This document shows, piece after piece, positions 578-15,884 of a stretch of DNA of 31,742 nucleotides; within the stretch, counting starts at the first letter, position 1, and the number at the start of each line of letters is the position of its first letter. Source of the stretch: Candidatus Hermodarchaeum yapensis (GTDB taxonomy: Archaea; Asgardarchaeota; Hermodarchaeia; Hermodarchaeales; Hermodarchaeaceae); assembly GCA_016840405.1 (NCBI GenBank), contig JAEOSK010000027.1:1-31742 (forward strand). Reading direction: 5' to 3'. Below the pieces are notes generated by a model. It did not search any database and was not told where the DNA came from. It saw only the letters and a program-made list of their open reading frames with translations. The translations under genes were made by a program, and so were the position numbers.

Positions 578-2203
578 ATGGCAACTACAGCAGTTTCTTT
601 TGAATCAATATCCCCTGCCGATTTCTTCTACCGAAACCGGTCAATTGCAGGCTTCGATAATAACATGCGAGCGTTGTACACGGCAGTCCGTGAACTGGTT
701 GAAAACTCGCTCGATGCCTGTGAAGATGGTGGCTTTCTTCCCACAATAAAGGTGAAATTATCTGAGGTTTCCCCAAATTGGTTTAGACTCCGGGTTGAGG
801 ATAATGGAATTGGGGTTCCCAGGGACCATATTTTACCTGCCTTCGGGCAAATCCTCTACGGTTCAAAGTATGAACATAAACAAGCCCGAGGGCGTTTTGG
901 CCTTGGTGGCAAGATGGCTTTCCTATTTGGTCAAATTACAACTAGTGAACCCCTGCAAGTAGTTTCTGCCCCCTCAGACGGTGAACATATCTTTGACGTT
1001 GTGCTTCGCCAGGATATTGAGGAGAATAAGCCTGAACTAGTGAAATGGGAGCGGAGAAAGAATCGAGAGAAGAAACATGGATGCACTCTTGAGTTTACTT
1101 TAGAAGGGAATTGGCGTTCGGCCAAACGGTATATCATCGATTATATCGAACAAACAGCGCTTATTACTCCATATGCAAGTCTTACTTTCACAGAGCCCGA
1201 TGGAACTGCCCATAAATTCAAACGGTCTGTGAAAGTGTTACCACCCCAACCCACACCTGTAAATCCCCACCCCAAGGGCATGGACATTGAACAACTCTCA
1301 CGAATAATCGAGGATACAAAAACACGAGATATGGTGACATTCCTTCGAACGCACTTTCACCGGGTTGGACCCAAAACTGCCAAGGCTTTTCTAAAGAGTA
1401 TAAACATGGCTTATTCACAAGATCCACGTGGCCTGAAACCTAACGATTTAGTGAAAATTGCCCGTGGACTTGAAGACTTCGATAAGTGGTTACCCCCCGA
1501 TGCCCGTGTTCTTTCACCATTAGGAACTAAGCTTCTGGAGTTGGGTATTCGTTCTACTTTGAATCCCGAATTTGTTAAAGTTACACAACGACCTCCAAAT
1601 AGCTACGGAGGTCACCCCTTCATTGTTGAATGCGGACTAGCCTATGGGGGTGATGTCCCTATGAAAGAGTCGATTATTATCTATCGGTTTGCTAATCGCA
1701 TTCCATTAATTTTTGACGAATACAAAGACGTTGCAGCAAAGGTGATTCGTGCAGTTCCATGGTCACGATATCGTATCCGACCAGGAATGCCTATTGCAGC
1801 CTTTGTCGCAGTGGTAAGCACAAAGATTCCCTTCAAAACCGCAGGGAAGGAATTCATCGCTGATCTCACTGAACTGGAATACGACATCCGGATGGGATTG
1901 ATGGAATGTGCTCGAAGTTTGAAAGGGCACTTGCGCCAAAAAGAGAAAGTGCAGCGCGAACGTGTCCGGGCTAGTGTTTACGAAAAGTACCTTCCAATTA
2001 TTGCTCGGGATATTGCAGCCTTAGCCGGGCGTCGTAAGGTTCCGGATACCAAAACTCTCATCCAAAGTGCCCTATCGATTAAACTCGAAGACGAGGAAGA
2101 GGAGGTACTCCCCCCACCGGCAGAAGAGGGAATTTTAGAAGCGAATCCTCCAGAGATAAGTGACTCGGAGGATTCGGATGAGGAGGAGACCGAGGAGGAA
2201 TAG
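578..2203 (+). CDS. top6B: DNA topoisomerase VI subunit B
   Basis: GHKL motifs ELVENSLDA, VEDNGIG, GSKY, RGRFGLG; H2TH region HRVGPKTA; transducer RFANRIPL and STKIPFKTAGKE; acidic C-terminal tail. Confidence 0.97.
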   Translation: MATTAVSFESISPADFFYRNRSIAGFDNNMRALYTAVRELVENSLDACEDGGFLPTIKVKLSEVSPNWFRLRVEDNGIGVPRDHILPAFGQILYGSKYEHKQARGRFGLGGKMAFLFGQITTSEPLQVVSAPSDGEHIFDVVLRQDIEENKPELVKWERRKNREKKHGCTLEFTLEGNWRSAKRYIIDYIEQTALITPYASLTFTEPDGTAHKFKRSVKVLPPQPTPVNPHPKGMDIEQLSRIIEDTKTRDMVTFLRTHFHRVGPKTAKAFLKSINMAYSQDPRGLKPNDLVKIARGLEDFDKWLPPDARVLSPLGTKLLELGIRSTLNPEFVKVTQRPPNSYGGHPFIVECGLAYGGDVPMKESIIIYRFANRIPLIFDEYKDVAAKVIRAVPWSRYRIRPGMPIAAFVAVVSTKIPFKTAGKEFIADLTELEYDIRMGLMECARSLKGHLRQKEKVQRERVRASVYEKYLPIIARDIAALAGRRKVPDTKTLIQSALSIKLEDEEEEVLPPPAEEGILEANPPEISDSEDSDEEETEEE

Positions 2204-2212
2204 GAGAGGAGC

Positions 2213-3547
2213 ATGATGTCTGAACCAACCCCTGATCTTGTTATCGGAAAACTTTCCCGTCGATGGAAACCAACAAAGCGTCTAAAACAGCTTTTGAAGA
2301 TTGATTCAGGGCGTCTTCGTCGCCTTCTTAGGAAATTAGAGAAAGATGGACTAATAGAATCTCGAACGCGTGGCGGACAGCTTGAATGGCGTCTAGTTAA
2401 GGGTGAAGCCCGGAGGATTCAAAAAATTCGAAAAGAGCCCAAAGCTTTCATTGAAGAGCAAAAGACCTCTGACCAAATTTCATCAGATATGAAAAATCTG
2501 GGGCAGACAATGTATAAGACACTGGCAAAAAATGAATTTCCTGAAATTGATTTACCAAGCCGGAGCACTAGTAACATTCGTTTTGACCAAAAGCTTGGAC
2601 AATATGTTCTTGCTGGAAAAACTGTTACTAGGTCTACCCGGAATGTTGGGCAGATTCGAAGTTTTAGCCAGTTTGTCTGGGTCATGCGGTTTTTAAAGGA
2701 GCTCCTTGGGGAAGGAAAGTCTAGCACCCTCCGAGATATTTACTACCAATCCTTTGGTTTCGGTGTAAAATTTGGTCAGCAAAGTGAAAGTGACACGACC
2801 ATCACTGACGTTGAAGCCAAGTTAAAGACACCACGAGAATCTTTTCGAGTGTTCCCAGAAGACCGAGCTGCCATCTACGGTAATCTCACAATCGAATACA
2901 CATCACCCCAAAAATACGCAGGAAATCGTGTCAATCTTACCGATCACCCCGATGGTCTCATGATTGGTCCTTATTTGACATCATCAAAATTTGTCGACTG
3001 TAAAGCCGACAAAGTAATCGCCATTGAATCAGGTGGTATGTTCACTCGTTTTGTCGAAGATGGCGTCTATGAAACACATAATGCCATACTCATTCACACG
3101 GGAGGTCAAGCCCCACGCAGTGTGCGGCGTATGATTCGACGGCTTCGTTATGAGCTGAATTTACCAACTTACCTTTTCGTTGACGCAGACCCATGGGGAG
3201 CTCATATTGCGATGGTTATTATTTCTGGCAGTGCCTCAGCAGCCCACTTACGCGGTCTTGCAACCCCAGATGCAATCTGGATGGGGGTCTGGGCTTCAGA
3301 TATTCAGAAATATAATCTCCCAAGCGATCCCTTTACAGACACCGACAAAAAACGCACTCAAGATTTACTCAAAGACCCGCGATACCAGACGAAGTTCTGG
3401 CAGAAAGAATTGAATCTCTTTCTGAAAAATGGACGAAAAGCAGAACAACAGGCCTTCAGCCGCTATGGGCTGAGTTTTGTAACAGAAGAATACTTGCCTA
3501 AGAAATTCAAAGAAATCTCTCAACTTCAGCGTCAAGGTGTGCTCTAA
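2213..3547 (+). CDS. top6A: DNA topoisomerase VI subunit A with N-terminal extension
   Basis: TLRDIYY (catalytic Tyr), TOPRIM IESGG and DADPWG, KAEQQA; directly follows top6B. Confidence 0.96.
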   Translation: MMSEPTPDLVIGKLSRRWKPTKRLKQLLKIDSGRLRRLLRKLEKDGLIESRTRGGQLEWRLVKGEARRIQKIRKEPKAFIEEQKTSDQISSDMKNLGQTMYKTLAKNEFPEIDLPSRSTSNIRFDQKLGQYVLAGKTVTRSTRNVGQIRSFSQFVWVMRFLKELLGEGKSSTLRDIYYQSFGFGVKFGQQSESDTTITDVEAKLKTPRESFRVFPEDRAAIYGNLTIEYTSPQKYAGNRVNLTDHPDGLMIGPYLTSSKFVDCKADKVIAIESGGMFTRFVEDGVYETHNAILIHTGGQAPRSVRRMIRRLRYELNLPTYLFVDADPWGAHIAMVIISGSASAAHLRGLATPDAIWMGVWASDIQKYNLPSDPFTDTDKKRTQDLLKDPRYQTKFWQKELNLFLKNGRKAEQQAFSRYGLSFVTEEYLPKKFKEISQLQRQGVL

Positions 3548-12885: not shown

Positions 12886-14132
12886 GGTGACAAATAAGTC
12901 AAAATAGGAGTAAACTGAATCTGATTCATCGAGGGTATAGGTACGAATTAAAACCAAATAATTGTCAGCGAACAATGTTGGCTAAACATGCGGGATGTGC
13001 ACGATTCGCCTATAACTGGGGATTGGAACAGCAGATTAAACGGTTGCAATCACAAAAGAGGAAAAAACAATTCACAAATGCAATTGAACAACATCGCGAA
13101 TTAGTGCGCCTGAAAAAACTGAATTTCCTTGATGTATGAAGTGTCCAAATGCGCGCCCCAGGAGGCGCTCCGCGATCTCGATAGAGCGTTTACAAACTTT
13201 TGGCGAAGAAGAAAAAAGAATCAAGTTGGTTTCCCTAAATTTAAGAAGAAAGGACGTAACGACAGCTTTCGATTATATGGGAGTATACGAGTTTTTGAAA
13301 AGGCGGTTCAGCTTCCACGTTTAGGTCGAATACGTGTGAAAGAAAAACCACAAATAAAGGGGCAGATACTCTCAGCCACAGTTTCACGAAGAGCTGATAG
13401 GTGGTTTGTCAGTTTTTGTACTGAAGAAGAGAAAATTACCTCATCACTTGCTGATGGTCCTAGGATTGGTGTAGATTTGGGTATCACGTCTTTAGCTACT
13501 CTGTCTGACGCAACTGTATTTGACAAACCTCGAGCATTAACAAAGAGGTTACGAAAACTCAAGCGCCTATCCCGGCAGTTATCATGTGAAGAAAAGGGTT
13601 CGAATAATCGTCGAAAAGCAATCCTCAGGTTAGCAAGGCTACATTGGCGCATCAGCAATATCCGATTAGATGTCATTCATAAGGTAACTAGCTATTTGGC
13701 TAAGAATCACAGCCAAATCATTATTGAAGACCTTTGTATTAGGGTCATAATGAAAAATAAACTAATCAGTCGTGCCATCGCAGATGTGGAATTATCTGAG
13801 CTTTGTCGGCAACTCGTATACAAAACAAAGTGGTACGGATTAAAATTAATTATTGCTCATCGATTTTTTCCATCATCTAAACGATGTTCACAATGTGGGA
13901 AAATTAAAGAAAGACTATCTTTGTCTGAGCGAATATTCATTTGCGAGTCATGTGGATTGCAGTTAAATCGAGACCTTAATGCTGCTAGAAATTTGGTCAC
14001 CGCCAGTTGGACGGAGACAGAAAACGCCTGCTATGAGGCGGGAGGTTACAGCTCTTCGGGGCAGTGTTCGTCGATGAAACAGGAACTGAACTTCAGCCAA
14101 ACATAAAGCGTTGAGTAAGTTTCAGGCAACGG
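12886..14132 (+). mobile_element. Non-autonomous IS607-like (IS200/IS605 superfamily) element carrying only tnpB
   Basis: TnpB motifs of the IS607-associated type; right end reads GAGTAAGTTT...AACGG; candidate left GG at 12886-12887 followed by short A-rich repeats; no tnpA. Left boundary is tentative. Confidence 0.65.
12915..14106 (+). pseudogene. tnpB: TnpB RNA-guided endonuclease, frameshifted near 13110-13132
   Basis: N-terminal frame 12915-13139 (HRGYRYELKP, HAGCARFAYNWGL, NAIEQHRELVRLKK) continues in another frame from 13132 (MYEVSKCAPQEALRDL, GVDLGI, IIIEDL, SSKRCSQCG, CESCG, RDLNAARN). Confidence 0.88.
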
Positions 14133-14152
14133 GAAAGCTTTTTGTGGGATGA
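13995..14152 (+). ncRNA. Putative TnpB omega/reRNA scaffold plus flanking guide
   Basis: Inferred from its position overlapping the tnpB 3' end and the element right end; 5' boundary approximate. Confidence 0.45.
14133..14146 (+). promoter_or_regulatory. Candidate BRE/TATA of the tRNA-His gene
   Basis: GAAAG followed by CTTTTTGT, about 45 nt upstream of the mature tRNA start. Confidence 0.4.
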
Positions 14153-14186
14153 TGTAGTTCAACCATTCTTTGTGCTGGGACACTGT

Positions 14187-14343
14187 GCCGGGATAATACT
14201 AGTTGGATAATCAACTGCATCCCGAAGGTGTAAACTGGTAATTGCCCAGGCGCAATGGTAGCATTGAAGCCTGTGGAGTCCCATTTAATGTAATGGGATA
14301 CAGAAAGCTTTAGGCCGGGGTTCGAATCCCTGTCCCGGCACCA
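14187..14343 (+). tRNA. tRNA-His(GUG) with three introns (14195-14226, 14234-14255, 14277-14305) and encoded CCA
   Basis: Exons 14187-14194, 14227-14233, 14256-14276 and 14306-14343 join to a 74-nt cloverleaf: GCCGGGA TG GTGT AATGGTA GCAT T GAAGC CTGTGGA GCTTT AGGC CGGGG TTCGAAT CCCTG TCCCGGC A CCA. Each junction lies in a BHB or relaxed BHB motif; a T5 tract follows. Confidence 0.9.
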
Positions 14344-14390
14344 TTTTTCACTATAAACGTGGATAATGAGAATTAGACAAACGAAGCGAG

Positions 14391-15884
14391 TTGACAGCTT
14401 TGAAGCGCGGAAAAGAATTAGCGGTTGGTGGATTTCGAGATTTCTATCCAGAATTATACCAAAAAATCGACCGCATATTACGAGCCTTTCGAGAAATTCC
14501 TCAACTGTTTGGTTACATTGAGTACGAATGTCCAACCGTTGAGCCTTTACAATTGTTTCAGCTGAAATCAGGAACAGAATTAGTTGAAGAGACCTTCAAA
14601 GTAACGGACCGGAAAAATCGACAATTAGTCCTGCGACCCGAAACAACGCCTTCGCTTGCACGAATGCTCGCAGCACAACAACAATACTACCCACGTCCCA
14701 TCCGCTGGTATTCAGTTTCACGCGTATTTCGTGACGAAACCCAACAGCGAGGACGCGTTAAGGAATTCTGGCAACTCAATGTCGATTTACTTGGCACTGA
14801 AGACATAGGAGCAGATGCTGAAATCATCAACGTATTAGCCGCAATTATCCAAAGCCTCGGTTTTACTGCCGAAGATTTCGTAATCCGTATCAATGACCGC
14901 CGCTTAATCCAAAGCTATATCGAATCACTGGGCCTGATTAATTATCTTGAAATAATACGTATATTGGATCGTCGCGACAAATTCTTACAAGAAGCCATCA
15001 TCAGTCAACTCACAGAAGAGGGAACACCCGCAAAGAAAGCTGAGGAAATCGCACTCACTCTACGTCATTTCTTTGTAGGAAACCAACAAGAGCGACCAAA
15101 ACTGCCCCGTTCTAAACAGATCGATGAGATCATAGAGAATCTTCCCCAAATTCAACAAAATGCAATTATCGATGCTCTTGAAAACAGTGGGATCCCAAGA
15201 GAGGTTGCAGTTCAACTTACTGATTTTTCCTCGATAAAAGGCTCTCCAGCAGAGTTTCTAAAATTAATCGAGCAAGTTGAATTAACCAATGAAACCAGAC
15301 AGGCCCTTGAACCCCTACGACAGTTAGCAACACAACTCGACGATTTGGGAATAATTGCTTGCTGTGAATATGACGCTAGTATCGCACGAGGATTGGATTA
15401 CTATACAGGCGTTGTCTTTGAAGCATGGGACCGAGGAAAAGGATTACCACGCGCAATTGCGGGTGGTGGTCGCTATGATGACCTTGTGGGAATTCTTGAA
15501 GGCCAACCATTACCCGGCACCGGATTTGGATTTGGCGAAACCGTAATTCTTGAAATTGCAGAAGAGAAGGGACTCCTCCCACCACCTAAACCAGGTGCCG
15601 ATCTCTACATCGCACCTGTTTCAAAGAAACAATTAGGCGATTGCCGCCAGATTGCCACACAACTTCGTACAGCGGGGATTCGCACTCTTTTCAATGGTTT
15701 CACTTGGTCTCTCAAAAAATACCTTGACGATGCAAGTAAGCGACAAATTCCTTATGTAGCCATTGTAGGACCCCGAGAGCTCGCAAAGGATGCAGTTAAC
15801 CTTCGTAACATGAAAACTGGAAAAGAAAAAGAAGTGAAAATTGCTAGATTAGCAGACACTATCCGAACCGCTCTAAACCAGTAA
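14391..15884 (+). CDS. hisS: Histidine--tRNA ligase
   Basis: GFRDFYP, LRPETT, motif 2 FRDETQQRGRVKEFWQ, ARGLDYYTG, AGGGRYD, GTGFGFG and a C-terminal anticodon-binding domain. Confidence 0.96.
   Translation: MTALKRGKELAVGGFRDFYPELYQKIDRILRAFREIPQLFGYIEYECPTVEPLQLFQLKSGTELVEETFKVTDRKNRQLVLRPETTPSLARMLAAQQQYYPRPIRWYSVSRVFRDETQQRGRVKEFWQLNVDLLGTEDIGADAEIINVLAAIIQSLGFTAEDFVIRINDRRLIQSYIESLGLINYLEIIRILDRRDKFLQEAIISQLTEEGTPAKKAEEIALTLRHFFVGNQQERPKLPRSKQIDEIIENLPQIQQNAIIDALENSGIPREVAVQLTDFSSIKGSPAEFLKLIEQVELTNETRQALEPLRQLATQLDDLGIIACCEYDASIARGLDYYTGVVFEAWDRGKGLPRAIAGGGRYDDLVGILEGQPLPGTGFGFGETVILEIAEEKGLLPPPKPGADLYIAPVSKKQLGDCRQIATQLRTAGIRTLFNGFTWSLKKYLDDASKRQIPYVAIVGPRELAKDAVNLRNMKTGKEKEVKIARLADTIRTALNQ

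Follow-up and report, generated by a model that had tools for sequence, protein, structure and literature searches.

The tRNA-His gene and HisRS of the window

The stretch of DNA analyzed, called here the window, comprises 31,742 nucleotides of the forward strand of contig JAEOSK010000027.1 (assembly GCA_016840405.1) from the Asgard archaeon Candidatus Hermodarchaeum yapensis, and corresponds to contig C10 of a 2.7-Mb metagenome bin with a completeness of 85.9% and a contamination of 4.4%. A bona fide tRNA-His(GTG) gene, interrupted by three introns of the archaeal kind (14187-14340), is followed there by hisS, the gene of histidyl-tRNA synthetase (HisRS) (Table 1). An extra G at position -1 (G-1) is a nearly universal mark of tRNA-His, and Archaea are listed in a review as "-1, C73" (PMC9976931). 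The tRNA-His of the window has neither: T is encoded at -1 and A at the discriminator position 73 (A73).

TABLE 1. Features of the tRNA-His/hisS locus, in window coordinates.
Feature	Position	Strand	Basis or remark
Promoter-like element GGAAAGCTTTTTGTGG upstream of the tRNA-His gene	14132..14147	+	Near-identical in the 15 relatives' loci reaching that far (L008 does not)
Leader near-repeat of the tRNA 5' end, GCTGGGAC vs GCCGGGAT	14174..14181	+	Only in the 13/16 genes with intron 1
Position -1 = T, no G-1 encoded	14186	+	T in 15/16 Hermod genes; A in L006 when its downstream 5' copy is taken
tRNA-His exon 1, positions 1-8	14187..14194	+	Junction GCCGGGAT/GGTGTAA set by L011-L013, without intron 1
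Intron 1, 32 nt, between positions 8/9, bulge-helix-bulge	14195..14226	+	Helix CGGG/CCCG, bulges AT/A and AA/G, by eye
tRNA-His exon 2, positions 9-15	14227..14233	+	
Intron 2, 22 nt, D-loop between 15/16, bulge-helix-bulge	14234..14255	+	Helix GTGT/GCGC, bulges AA/A and AA/T, inner helix CTGG/CCAG
tRNA-His exon 3, positions 16-37	14256..14276	+	Anticodon GTG at 14273-14275
Intron 3, 29 nt, canonical position 37/38, bulge-helix-bulge	14277..14305	+	Helix CTGT/ACAG, bulges GG/A and AA/A, inner helix TCCCAT/ATGGGA
tRNA-His exon 4, positions 38-73	14306..14340	+	Discriminator A73 at 14340; A73 in 16/16 Hermod genes
Encoded CCA, then TTTTT	14341..14348	+	CCA encoded in 16/16 Hermod genes
hisS, 497-aa class II HisRS, only HisRS found in the genome	14391..15884	+	TIGR00442, 326.8 bits vs cut-off 286.75
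DRKNR, aligned with the T. thermophilus RGGR tetrapeptide (G-1 pocket)	14607..14621	+	Alignment
Motif 2 and loop FRDETQQRGRVKEFWQ	14727..14774	+	Alignment
About 56 A73-type-only residues, insertion domain (residues 211-266)	15021..15188	+	Alignment columns

No tRNA was reported in the window by ARAGORN (default and intron modes) or by Rfam at the gathering threshold, because the gene is interrupted by the three introns. Once 14195-14226, 14234-14255 and 14277-14305 were removed, the 71-nt product was called by ARAGORN as a canonical tRNA-His(gtg). The spliced tRNA has a 7-bp acceptor stem (GCCGGGA, 14187-14193, paired with TCCCGGC, 14333-14339), a D-arm given by ARAGORN as GTGT-AATGGTA-GCAT, an anticodon arm (GAAGC-CTGTGGA-GCTTT, split after G37) with GTG at 34-36, and a T-arm (CGGGG-TTCGAAT-CCCTG) directly 5' of the 3' acceptor strand.

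Each of the three insertions can form a bulge-helix-bulge (BHB) cut after the second bulge nucleotide. Judged by eye, all of them have the two 3-nt bulges and the 4-bp helix of archaeal introns, and their removal restores the cloverleaf. Comparison with relatives' loci located the junctions of introns 1 and 3. Intron 1 is missing from L011-L013 and intron 3 from L010-L012, which set the intron 3 junction as CTGTGG/AGCTTT, and intron 2 is present in 16/16 genes. The register of intron 1 is supported because the ACCC of L002 could not pair with GGGA. In intron 2, the helix strand GCGC is replaced in L006 and L011 by GCAC, which gives better pairing; the change turns G-U into A-U, as a helix predicts. 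The one-intron orthologue L012 was matched by the Rfam tRNA model at 46.4 bits, with its 26-nt insert placed in the D-loop. Of two other D-arms considered, one was GGTG/TGCC and went with an 18-nt intron at 26/27, and the other was GCGC/GCAT and went with a single large intron. Both were dropped in favor of GTGT/GCAT with an intron at 15/16, because the latter fits the BHB rule, the Rfam alignment and the GCGC-to-GCAC change of L006 and L011.

The gene was set against its relatives; those of the HisRS bear Hermodarchaeota (Hermod) labels, some being mislabelled Hod-, Thor- or Promethearchaeota. A complete tRNA-His gene was found upstream of hisS in 15 relatives' loci (a sixteenth, L008, is incomplete), giving a set of 16 distinct Hermod genes with that of the window. 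No G-1 is encoded in any of them.

The product of hisS contains the tRNA-synt_His and HGTP_anticodon domains of Pfam (PF03129 at residues 405-492) and keeps FRDE, ARGLDYY, GGGRYD and GFGFG, so that motif 2, the HisA/HisB boxes, motif 3 and the anticodon-binding domain of a class II HisRS are all present. In the alignment with the E. coli enzyme (hisS of NC_000913.3, used for residue numbering) R113, E115, Q118, G120, R121 and Q127 are shared, and the window enzyme differs at D114/H, T116/R, Q117/P, V122/Y and K123/R. In the HisRS-tRNA complex of Thermus thermophilus, the alpha-phosphate of G-1 is bound by Arg115 (116 in E. coli) and Arg122 (123), the G-1 pocket is formed by Gly72'Gly73' of the other subunit, and the insertion domain clamps the 3' acceptor strand (PMC4357726). 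At the Arg and Gly places the window HisRS has Thr, Lys and Lys-Asn, which departs from the G-1-dependent type, position 115 and the GG dipeptide being variable in canonical Asgard enzymes too.

These data bear out most of what had been read in a previous, sequence-only reading of the locus. Its assignment of T to -1 (14186) and A to 73 (14340) agrees with direct inspection and is right, given that the spliced 71-nt product folds as tRNA-His(gtg). The start of hisS 47 nt past the CCA (a TTG at 14391), the motif 2 sequence FRDETQQRGRVKEFWQ (residues 113-128) and the Thr and Lys placed by eye at E. coli Arg116 and Arg123 were all recovered, the last by alignment to NC_000913.3. An assembly error at position 73, which it had named as a way to be wrong, is ruled out, since 16/16 distinct Hermod genes agree on A73, an encoded CCA and no G-1; nor can this agreement be put down to chance.

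The pair also appears to be the only one of its kind in the genome. No second credible tRNA-His emerged when the complete assembly was searched for T-arm and acceptor pairs enclosing YTGTGR. A tRNA-His covariance model, built on positions 16-73, had the tRNA-His as its top match in 16/18 other genomes of the family, G005 and G009 giving weak matches only, and the next-best matches in the sister genus were tRNA-Asn, Gly, Asp and Ser. A single HisRS match was obtained in the window genome, as in each genome across the family. It could be argued that the A73 tRNA and its variant HisRS form an accessory pair, or one in decay, and that a canonical G-1:C73 tRNA-His and its HisRS lie in unassembled parts of the bins, as the window genome is 85.9% complete and bins often miss tRNA genes. 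This is hardly credible: the 19 family genomes searched yielded neither a canonical HisRS nor a second tRNA-His, the variant HisRS exceeds the hisS equivalog cut-off with its catalytic motifs intact, and in the single-contig genome G046 the best match is an A73 tRNA-His, the only other match not being a tRNA-His.

Separately, the intron mode of ARAGORN gave a tRNA-His(gtg) call with an odd long variable arm on contig C20 of the window genome (G000; complement 93-233), which was resolved by hand as a tRNA-Phe(GAA) with introns in the D-arm and at 37/38, A73 and an encoded CCA. The window genome is rich in multi-intron tRNAs, and automatic tRNA calls there are unreliable.

Asgard distribution and proposed recognition rule

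The survey covered 300 Asgard genomes, in which five families (f1, f4, f13, f25, and f27) were compared with 25 others (229 genomes). Two types of HisRS were distinguished: that of an A73-type clade, formed by Hermod and four families holding or branching with Heimdall-labelled genomes, and the canonical type. At E <= 1e-70, the variant HisRS was detected in 16/18 genomes of f1, 30/31 of f4, 8/9 of f13, 3/3 of f25 and 10/10 of f27, and in 0/229 genomes of the other families. Genomes of f13 and f25, as well as close protein relatives, are labelled Heimdallarchaeota.

Motif 2 of the A73-type enzymes reads FR[DN]ETxQ[RK]GR[VL][KR]EF and their length is about 500 aa (median 497 aa, vs 436 aa). The marks that separate the whole clade from canonical enzymes are [DN] at 114, T at 116 (a single exception has G), a small aliphatic or polar residue rather than Y/F at 122, and the extra residues of the insertion domain, about 56 by the criterion of columns filled in >70% of A73-type rows and <30% of the others. 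GG at the RGGR site occurs in no A73-type enzyme and is also missing from several canonical ones.

The state of the tRNA follows the type of the synthetase. In genomes with the variant HisRS, A73 without G-1 was found in G021 and G046 (f4), G044 (f13; the same genome as G149, and the source of the f13 state), G041 and G042 (= G116; f25), and G233 and one copy of G125 (f27). The canonical-HisRS genomes G039, G033, G036, G023 and G022 have G-1:C73. A further one, G027, has C73 with T at -1 and possesses Thg1, matching the published rule for archaea without an encoded G-1. The tRNA-His of G032, G071 and G043 was not found by the pattern search or the covariance model. Thus, A73 without G-1 and the variant HisRS stand together in every working tRNA-His gene found in the five families, and in no canonical-type genome examined. 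G125 has a second tRNA-His(GTG) copy, L126 (C94:20300-20355, minus strand), with g at -1, two acceptor-stem mismatches and a distance of 3 kb to hisS; it is probably a decaying duplicate.

Thg1, the enzyme that adds G-1 in eukaryotes, was searched for with PF04446, which matched 0/72 genomes of the five A73-type families, that of the window included, and 14/229 elsewhere. In the window genome there was no match to PF04446 or PF14413, the control genome of M. acetivorans being detected.

Taken together, these observations suggest, with a probability that we put at roughly three in four, that the tRNA-His and HisRS of the window are the organism's only pair, that their recognition rule has changed jointly, and that charging is independent of G-1. 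The archaeal splicing endonuclease would excise the three BHB introns from the precursor, the exons would be ligated, and RNase P would cut just before G1. With no nucleotide added at -1, the mature tRNA would begin at G1 and bear A73. The HisRS clade differs from canonical enzymes where the T. thermophilus complex binds the phosphate and base of G-1, and its insertion domain is larger; it would then charge this tRNA by relying instead on features such as A73, the anticodon or the acceptor stem.

The co-evolved G-1-independent pair was one of two readings offered from the sequence alone, and the comparative evidence, namely the co-occurrence of A73 and the variant HisRS in five families and the 0/72 result for Thg1, now supports it. 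Two of the checks proposed at that time, a search of the genome for Thg1 and a survey of N73 and the motif-2 loop on a HisRS tree across Asgard archaea, have been carried out here, and in the second A73 and the variant loop coincide in one clade. Wide occurrence of the loop alongside G-1:C73 tRNAs had been named as a result that would speak against the claim; in the Asgard sample the loop is confined to the A73 clade.

G-1 might nevertheless be added opposite A73 after transcription, as in eukaryotes, by an enzyme outside the Thg1 profiles, the HisRS being still G-1-dependent. A73 is the discriminator on which the eukaryotic Thg1 acts (PMC3245924), and the lack of a Pfam match in incomplete bins is no proof of absence. 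The 72 genomes without a PF04446 match, however, include the closed or near-closed G046 and G087, and the same profile does find 14 other Asgard genomes. Moreover, the characterized archaeal Thg1 enzymes require C73 and put U opposite A73 (PMC3245924), and the window HisRS has neither an Arg equivalent to T. thermophilus Arg115 nor the GG pocket. We therefore give this explanation little credence.

The base at -1 bears on a third possibility, in which the encoded U-1 is retained and paired with A73, RNase P cutting one position upstream, as for bacterial G-1:C73, and leaving an 8-bp acceptor stem. T stands at -1 in G046, in G044 and in 15 or 16 of the 16 Hermod genes, where it could pair with A73. 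The base is A, however, in G041, G042, G233, G125 and, under the preferred gene model, L006, and C in G021, so that a U-1:A73 pair is not conserved across the clade. Such variation (T, A, or C) in A73 genes is what would be predicted if the base is removed from the mature tRNA. Furthermore, the T of the Hermod genes lies in a leader conserved by descent (CGT/GCC), and the HisRS is without the residues that hold the -1 phosphate. Retention of U-1 is thus judged as improbable as an added G-1.

For the history of the pair, a quick maximum-likelihood tree of 43 HisRS sequences was calculated. The variant enzymes formed one clade (Shimodaira-Hasegawa-like approximate likelihood ratio test, SH-aLRT, 96), sister to the canonical-type enzymes of f9 (SH-aLRT 99), and the Hermod HisRS was nested within it as sister to that of f27 (SH-aLRT 99). 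Nearly all of the best 120 relatives of the window HisRS are Asgard-labelled. As a species marker, an RpoB domain was used; topoisomerase VI B (Topo VI-B) had been rejected for its paralogues and for being missing from the sister genus. Identity of the RpoB domain to the window genome was 73% in f7, 72% in f12 and f5, 69% in f2 and 68% in f6, all canonical-type families, vs 67% in f27, 64% in f25, 63% in f4 and 59% in f13, of the A73 type. The acceptor stem of the G233 tRNA-His is identical to that of the window, the G125 tRNA-His has an intron at the same D-loop position as intron 2, and the tRNA-His gene lies 2-3 kb from hisS in G233, as does the G125 copy with acceptor mismatches. Given this proximity, the shared stem and intron position, and the HisRS nesting set against RpoB, it seems somewhat more probable than otherwise that the Hermod lineage acquired a linked tRNA-His and hisS unit from a relative of the Heimdall group.

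Several observations weigh against a jointly changed, G-1-independent pair, or limit what the comparison can carry. The genomes compared are all metagenome bins, 72-95% complete. Canonical Asgard HisRS does not keep Arg116 throughout but has N, E, A or R there; since these enzymes serve G-1:C73 tRNAs, Thr116 alone is not diagnostic. The HisRS of the sister clade f9 is without GG and carries Ala or Arg at position 116, and G036, the one f9 member with a tRNA-His found, is of the G-1:C73 kind. Arg123, in turn, is retained in f4 and part of f13 despite A73. With 116, 123 and GG all failing to separate the two types cleanly, no single residue explains the change; of the residue argument in the sequence-only reading, the Thr and Lys substitutions stand and their diagnostic value does not. 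Gln118, which in E. coli is linked to C73, is retained in all A73-type Asgard enzymes. On the HisRS tree, the association of tRNA state with HisRS type goes back to one origin, to which one transfer may be added, so that the co-variation counts as one or two events and not as many independent ones; the transfer itself is drawn from a quick tree and one marker domain. Lastly, contigs from four RNA libraries matched to 14100-14900 contained no splice joints, being either unspliced or restricted to hisS. Two exact contigs lay within hisS, and that of one relative ran continuously from the tRNA leader into hisS across the unspliced gene. These contigs reveal neither ends nor strand, and DNA carry-over is possible, so that they are no evidence either way.

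Flanks and neighboring genes

The element GGAAAGCTTTTTGTGG upstream of the tRNA-His gene is promoter-like, a putative role suggested by its position and conservation. Between it and the gene, the leader contains a 13-nt near-repeat (GCTGGGACACTGT/GCCGGGAT in the window, GCCGGGGCACCGT/GCCGGGAT in the relatives L002-L010 and L014-L016) of the tRNA 5' end at 14187-14194. It is missing from L011-L013, which are without intron 1, and both copies read GCCGGGAT in L006. The near-repeat may be a trace of the origin of intron 1, or a processing element. Downstream, a TATA-like CACTATAAAC conserved in relatives lies at 14349-14358, between the oligo-T of the tRNA gene and the hisS start, which suggests a separate promoter for hisS with a very short leader, although the RNA contig of one relative runs on from the tRNA leader into hisS.

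On the 5' side, a TnpB-like open reading frame (ORF) of 325 aa, with OrfB_IS605 and a Cas12f1-like TNB domain (13129-14106, +), ends 26 nt before the promoter-like element. It looks like a recent insertion of the IS200/IS605 type, because the 92%-identical relative L001 differs there. Additionally, the B and A subunits of topoisomerase VI are encoded in tandem at 578-3547 (+). For the B subunit, a second paralogue with 27% identity was found on contig C33, the sister genus has only the distant form, and the closest orthologue outside the family (62%) belongs to f7.

Comparison with known histidine systems

No publication on HisRS or tRNA-His identity in Asgard archaea was found. Systems published as lacking G-1 are those of an alphaproteobacterial clade, which includes Caulobacter crescentus (PMC3064791; Ardell and Andersson, 2006, as cited in PMC9976931), of Trypanosoma brucei and Acanthamoeba castellanii, and of the mitochondria of Caenorhabditis elegans. 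The Asgard clade described here, which includes Heimdall-labelled genomes, combines A73, no encoded G-1, no Thg1 match and a HisRS lineage of its own.

With the eukaryotic cytosolic tRNA-His the window shares A73 and the lack of an encoded G-1. Unlike the eukaryotic system, however, it has no Thg1 match, and its HisRS is not of the eukaryotic cytosolic lineage: in a comparison of scores, not a tree, human cytoplasmic HisRS reached 289 bits with the canonical Asgard HisRS of G039, a genome with G-1:C73 and also Thg1, vs 111 bits with that of the window. The second reading offered from the sequence alone, an archaeal precursor of the eukaryotic Thg1-dependent system, is thus not supported, because the human enzyme resembles canonical Asgard HisRS far more closely and Thg1 is missing from the A73 lineages. 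The change to A73 has been placed in early eukaryote evolution (PMC3245924). It is conceivable, and in our view unlikely, that eukaryotic A73 was inherited from a Heimdall-like Asgard ancestor without G-1:C73 and that G-1 was later re-imposed by Thg1 together with a canonical-type HisRS. If true, the view that confines the origin of A73 to early eukaryote evolution (PMC3245924) would have to be given up. The synthetase comparison argues against a simple inheritance of the whole system by eukaryotes, and the A73-type Asgard clade makes the origin of eukaryotic A73 testable.

With the canonical archaeal pair the window shares the class II fold and catalytic motifs of HisRS, the enzyme of Thermoplasma acidophilum (1wu7) being its best solved relative (227 bits), and the cloverleaf, anticodon and 4-nt variable loop of tRNA-His, as in the Asgard genomes G039, G023 and G022. 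It differs in having neither G-1 nor C73, in a loop with ET..GRVK instead of [ED]xPQxGR[YF]R, and in the 56 extra residues of the insertion domain. If confirmed, such a rewired histidine identity rule would be a first among Archaea, and the natural tRNA/synthetase pair, which may be orthogonal to canonical ones, would be a candidate for genetic-code engineering.

The alphaproteobacterial pair of C. crescentus has in common with that of the window A73, no encoded G-1, no Thg1, a changed HisRS motif 2 loop that co-varies with the tRNA, and a proposed lateral transfer of the synthetase. By contrast, the window has G1-C72 and not G1-U72, a 7-nt D-loop (AATGGTA) and not one of 9 nt with U20a (PMC3064791), Gln at 118 and not the Gly reported for C. 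crescentus (PMC4338351), an archaeal host and three introns in the gene. The G-1-independent HisRS of T. brucei and A. castellanii (PMC4338351) likewise goes with no Thg1, a tRNA-His without G-1 and a non-canonical HisRS, and that of T. brucei (3hri) is the second-best solved relative of the window enzyme, at 207 bits. It differs in the U73 of its tRNA-His, in its loop WRYEAITRGRRREHYQ, in keeping the GG dipeptide and in having none of the derived residues common to the Asgard clade. If confirmed, the Asgard pair would be a further independent origin of histidine recognition without G-1, beside the alphaproteobacterial and protist ones.

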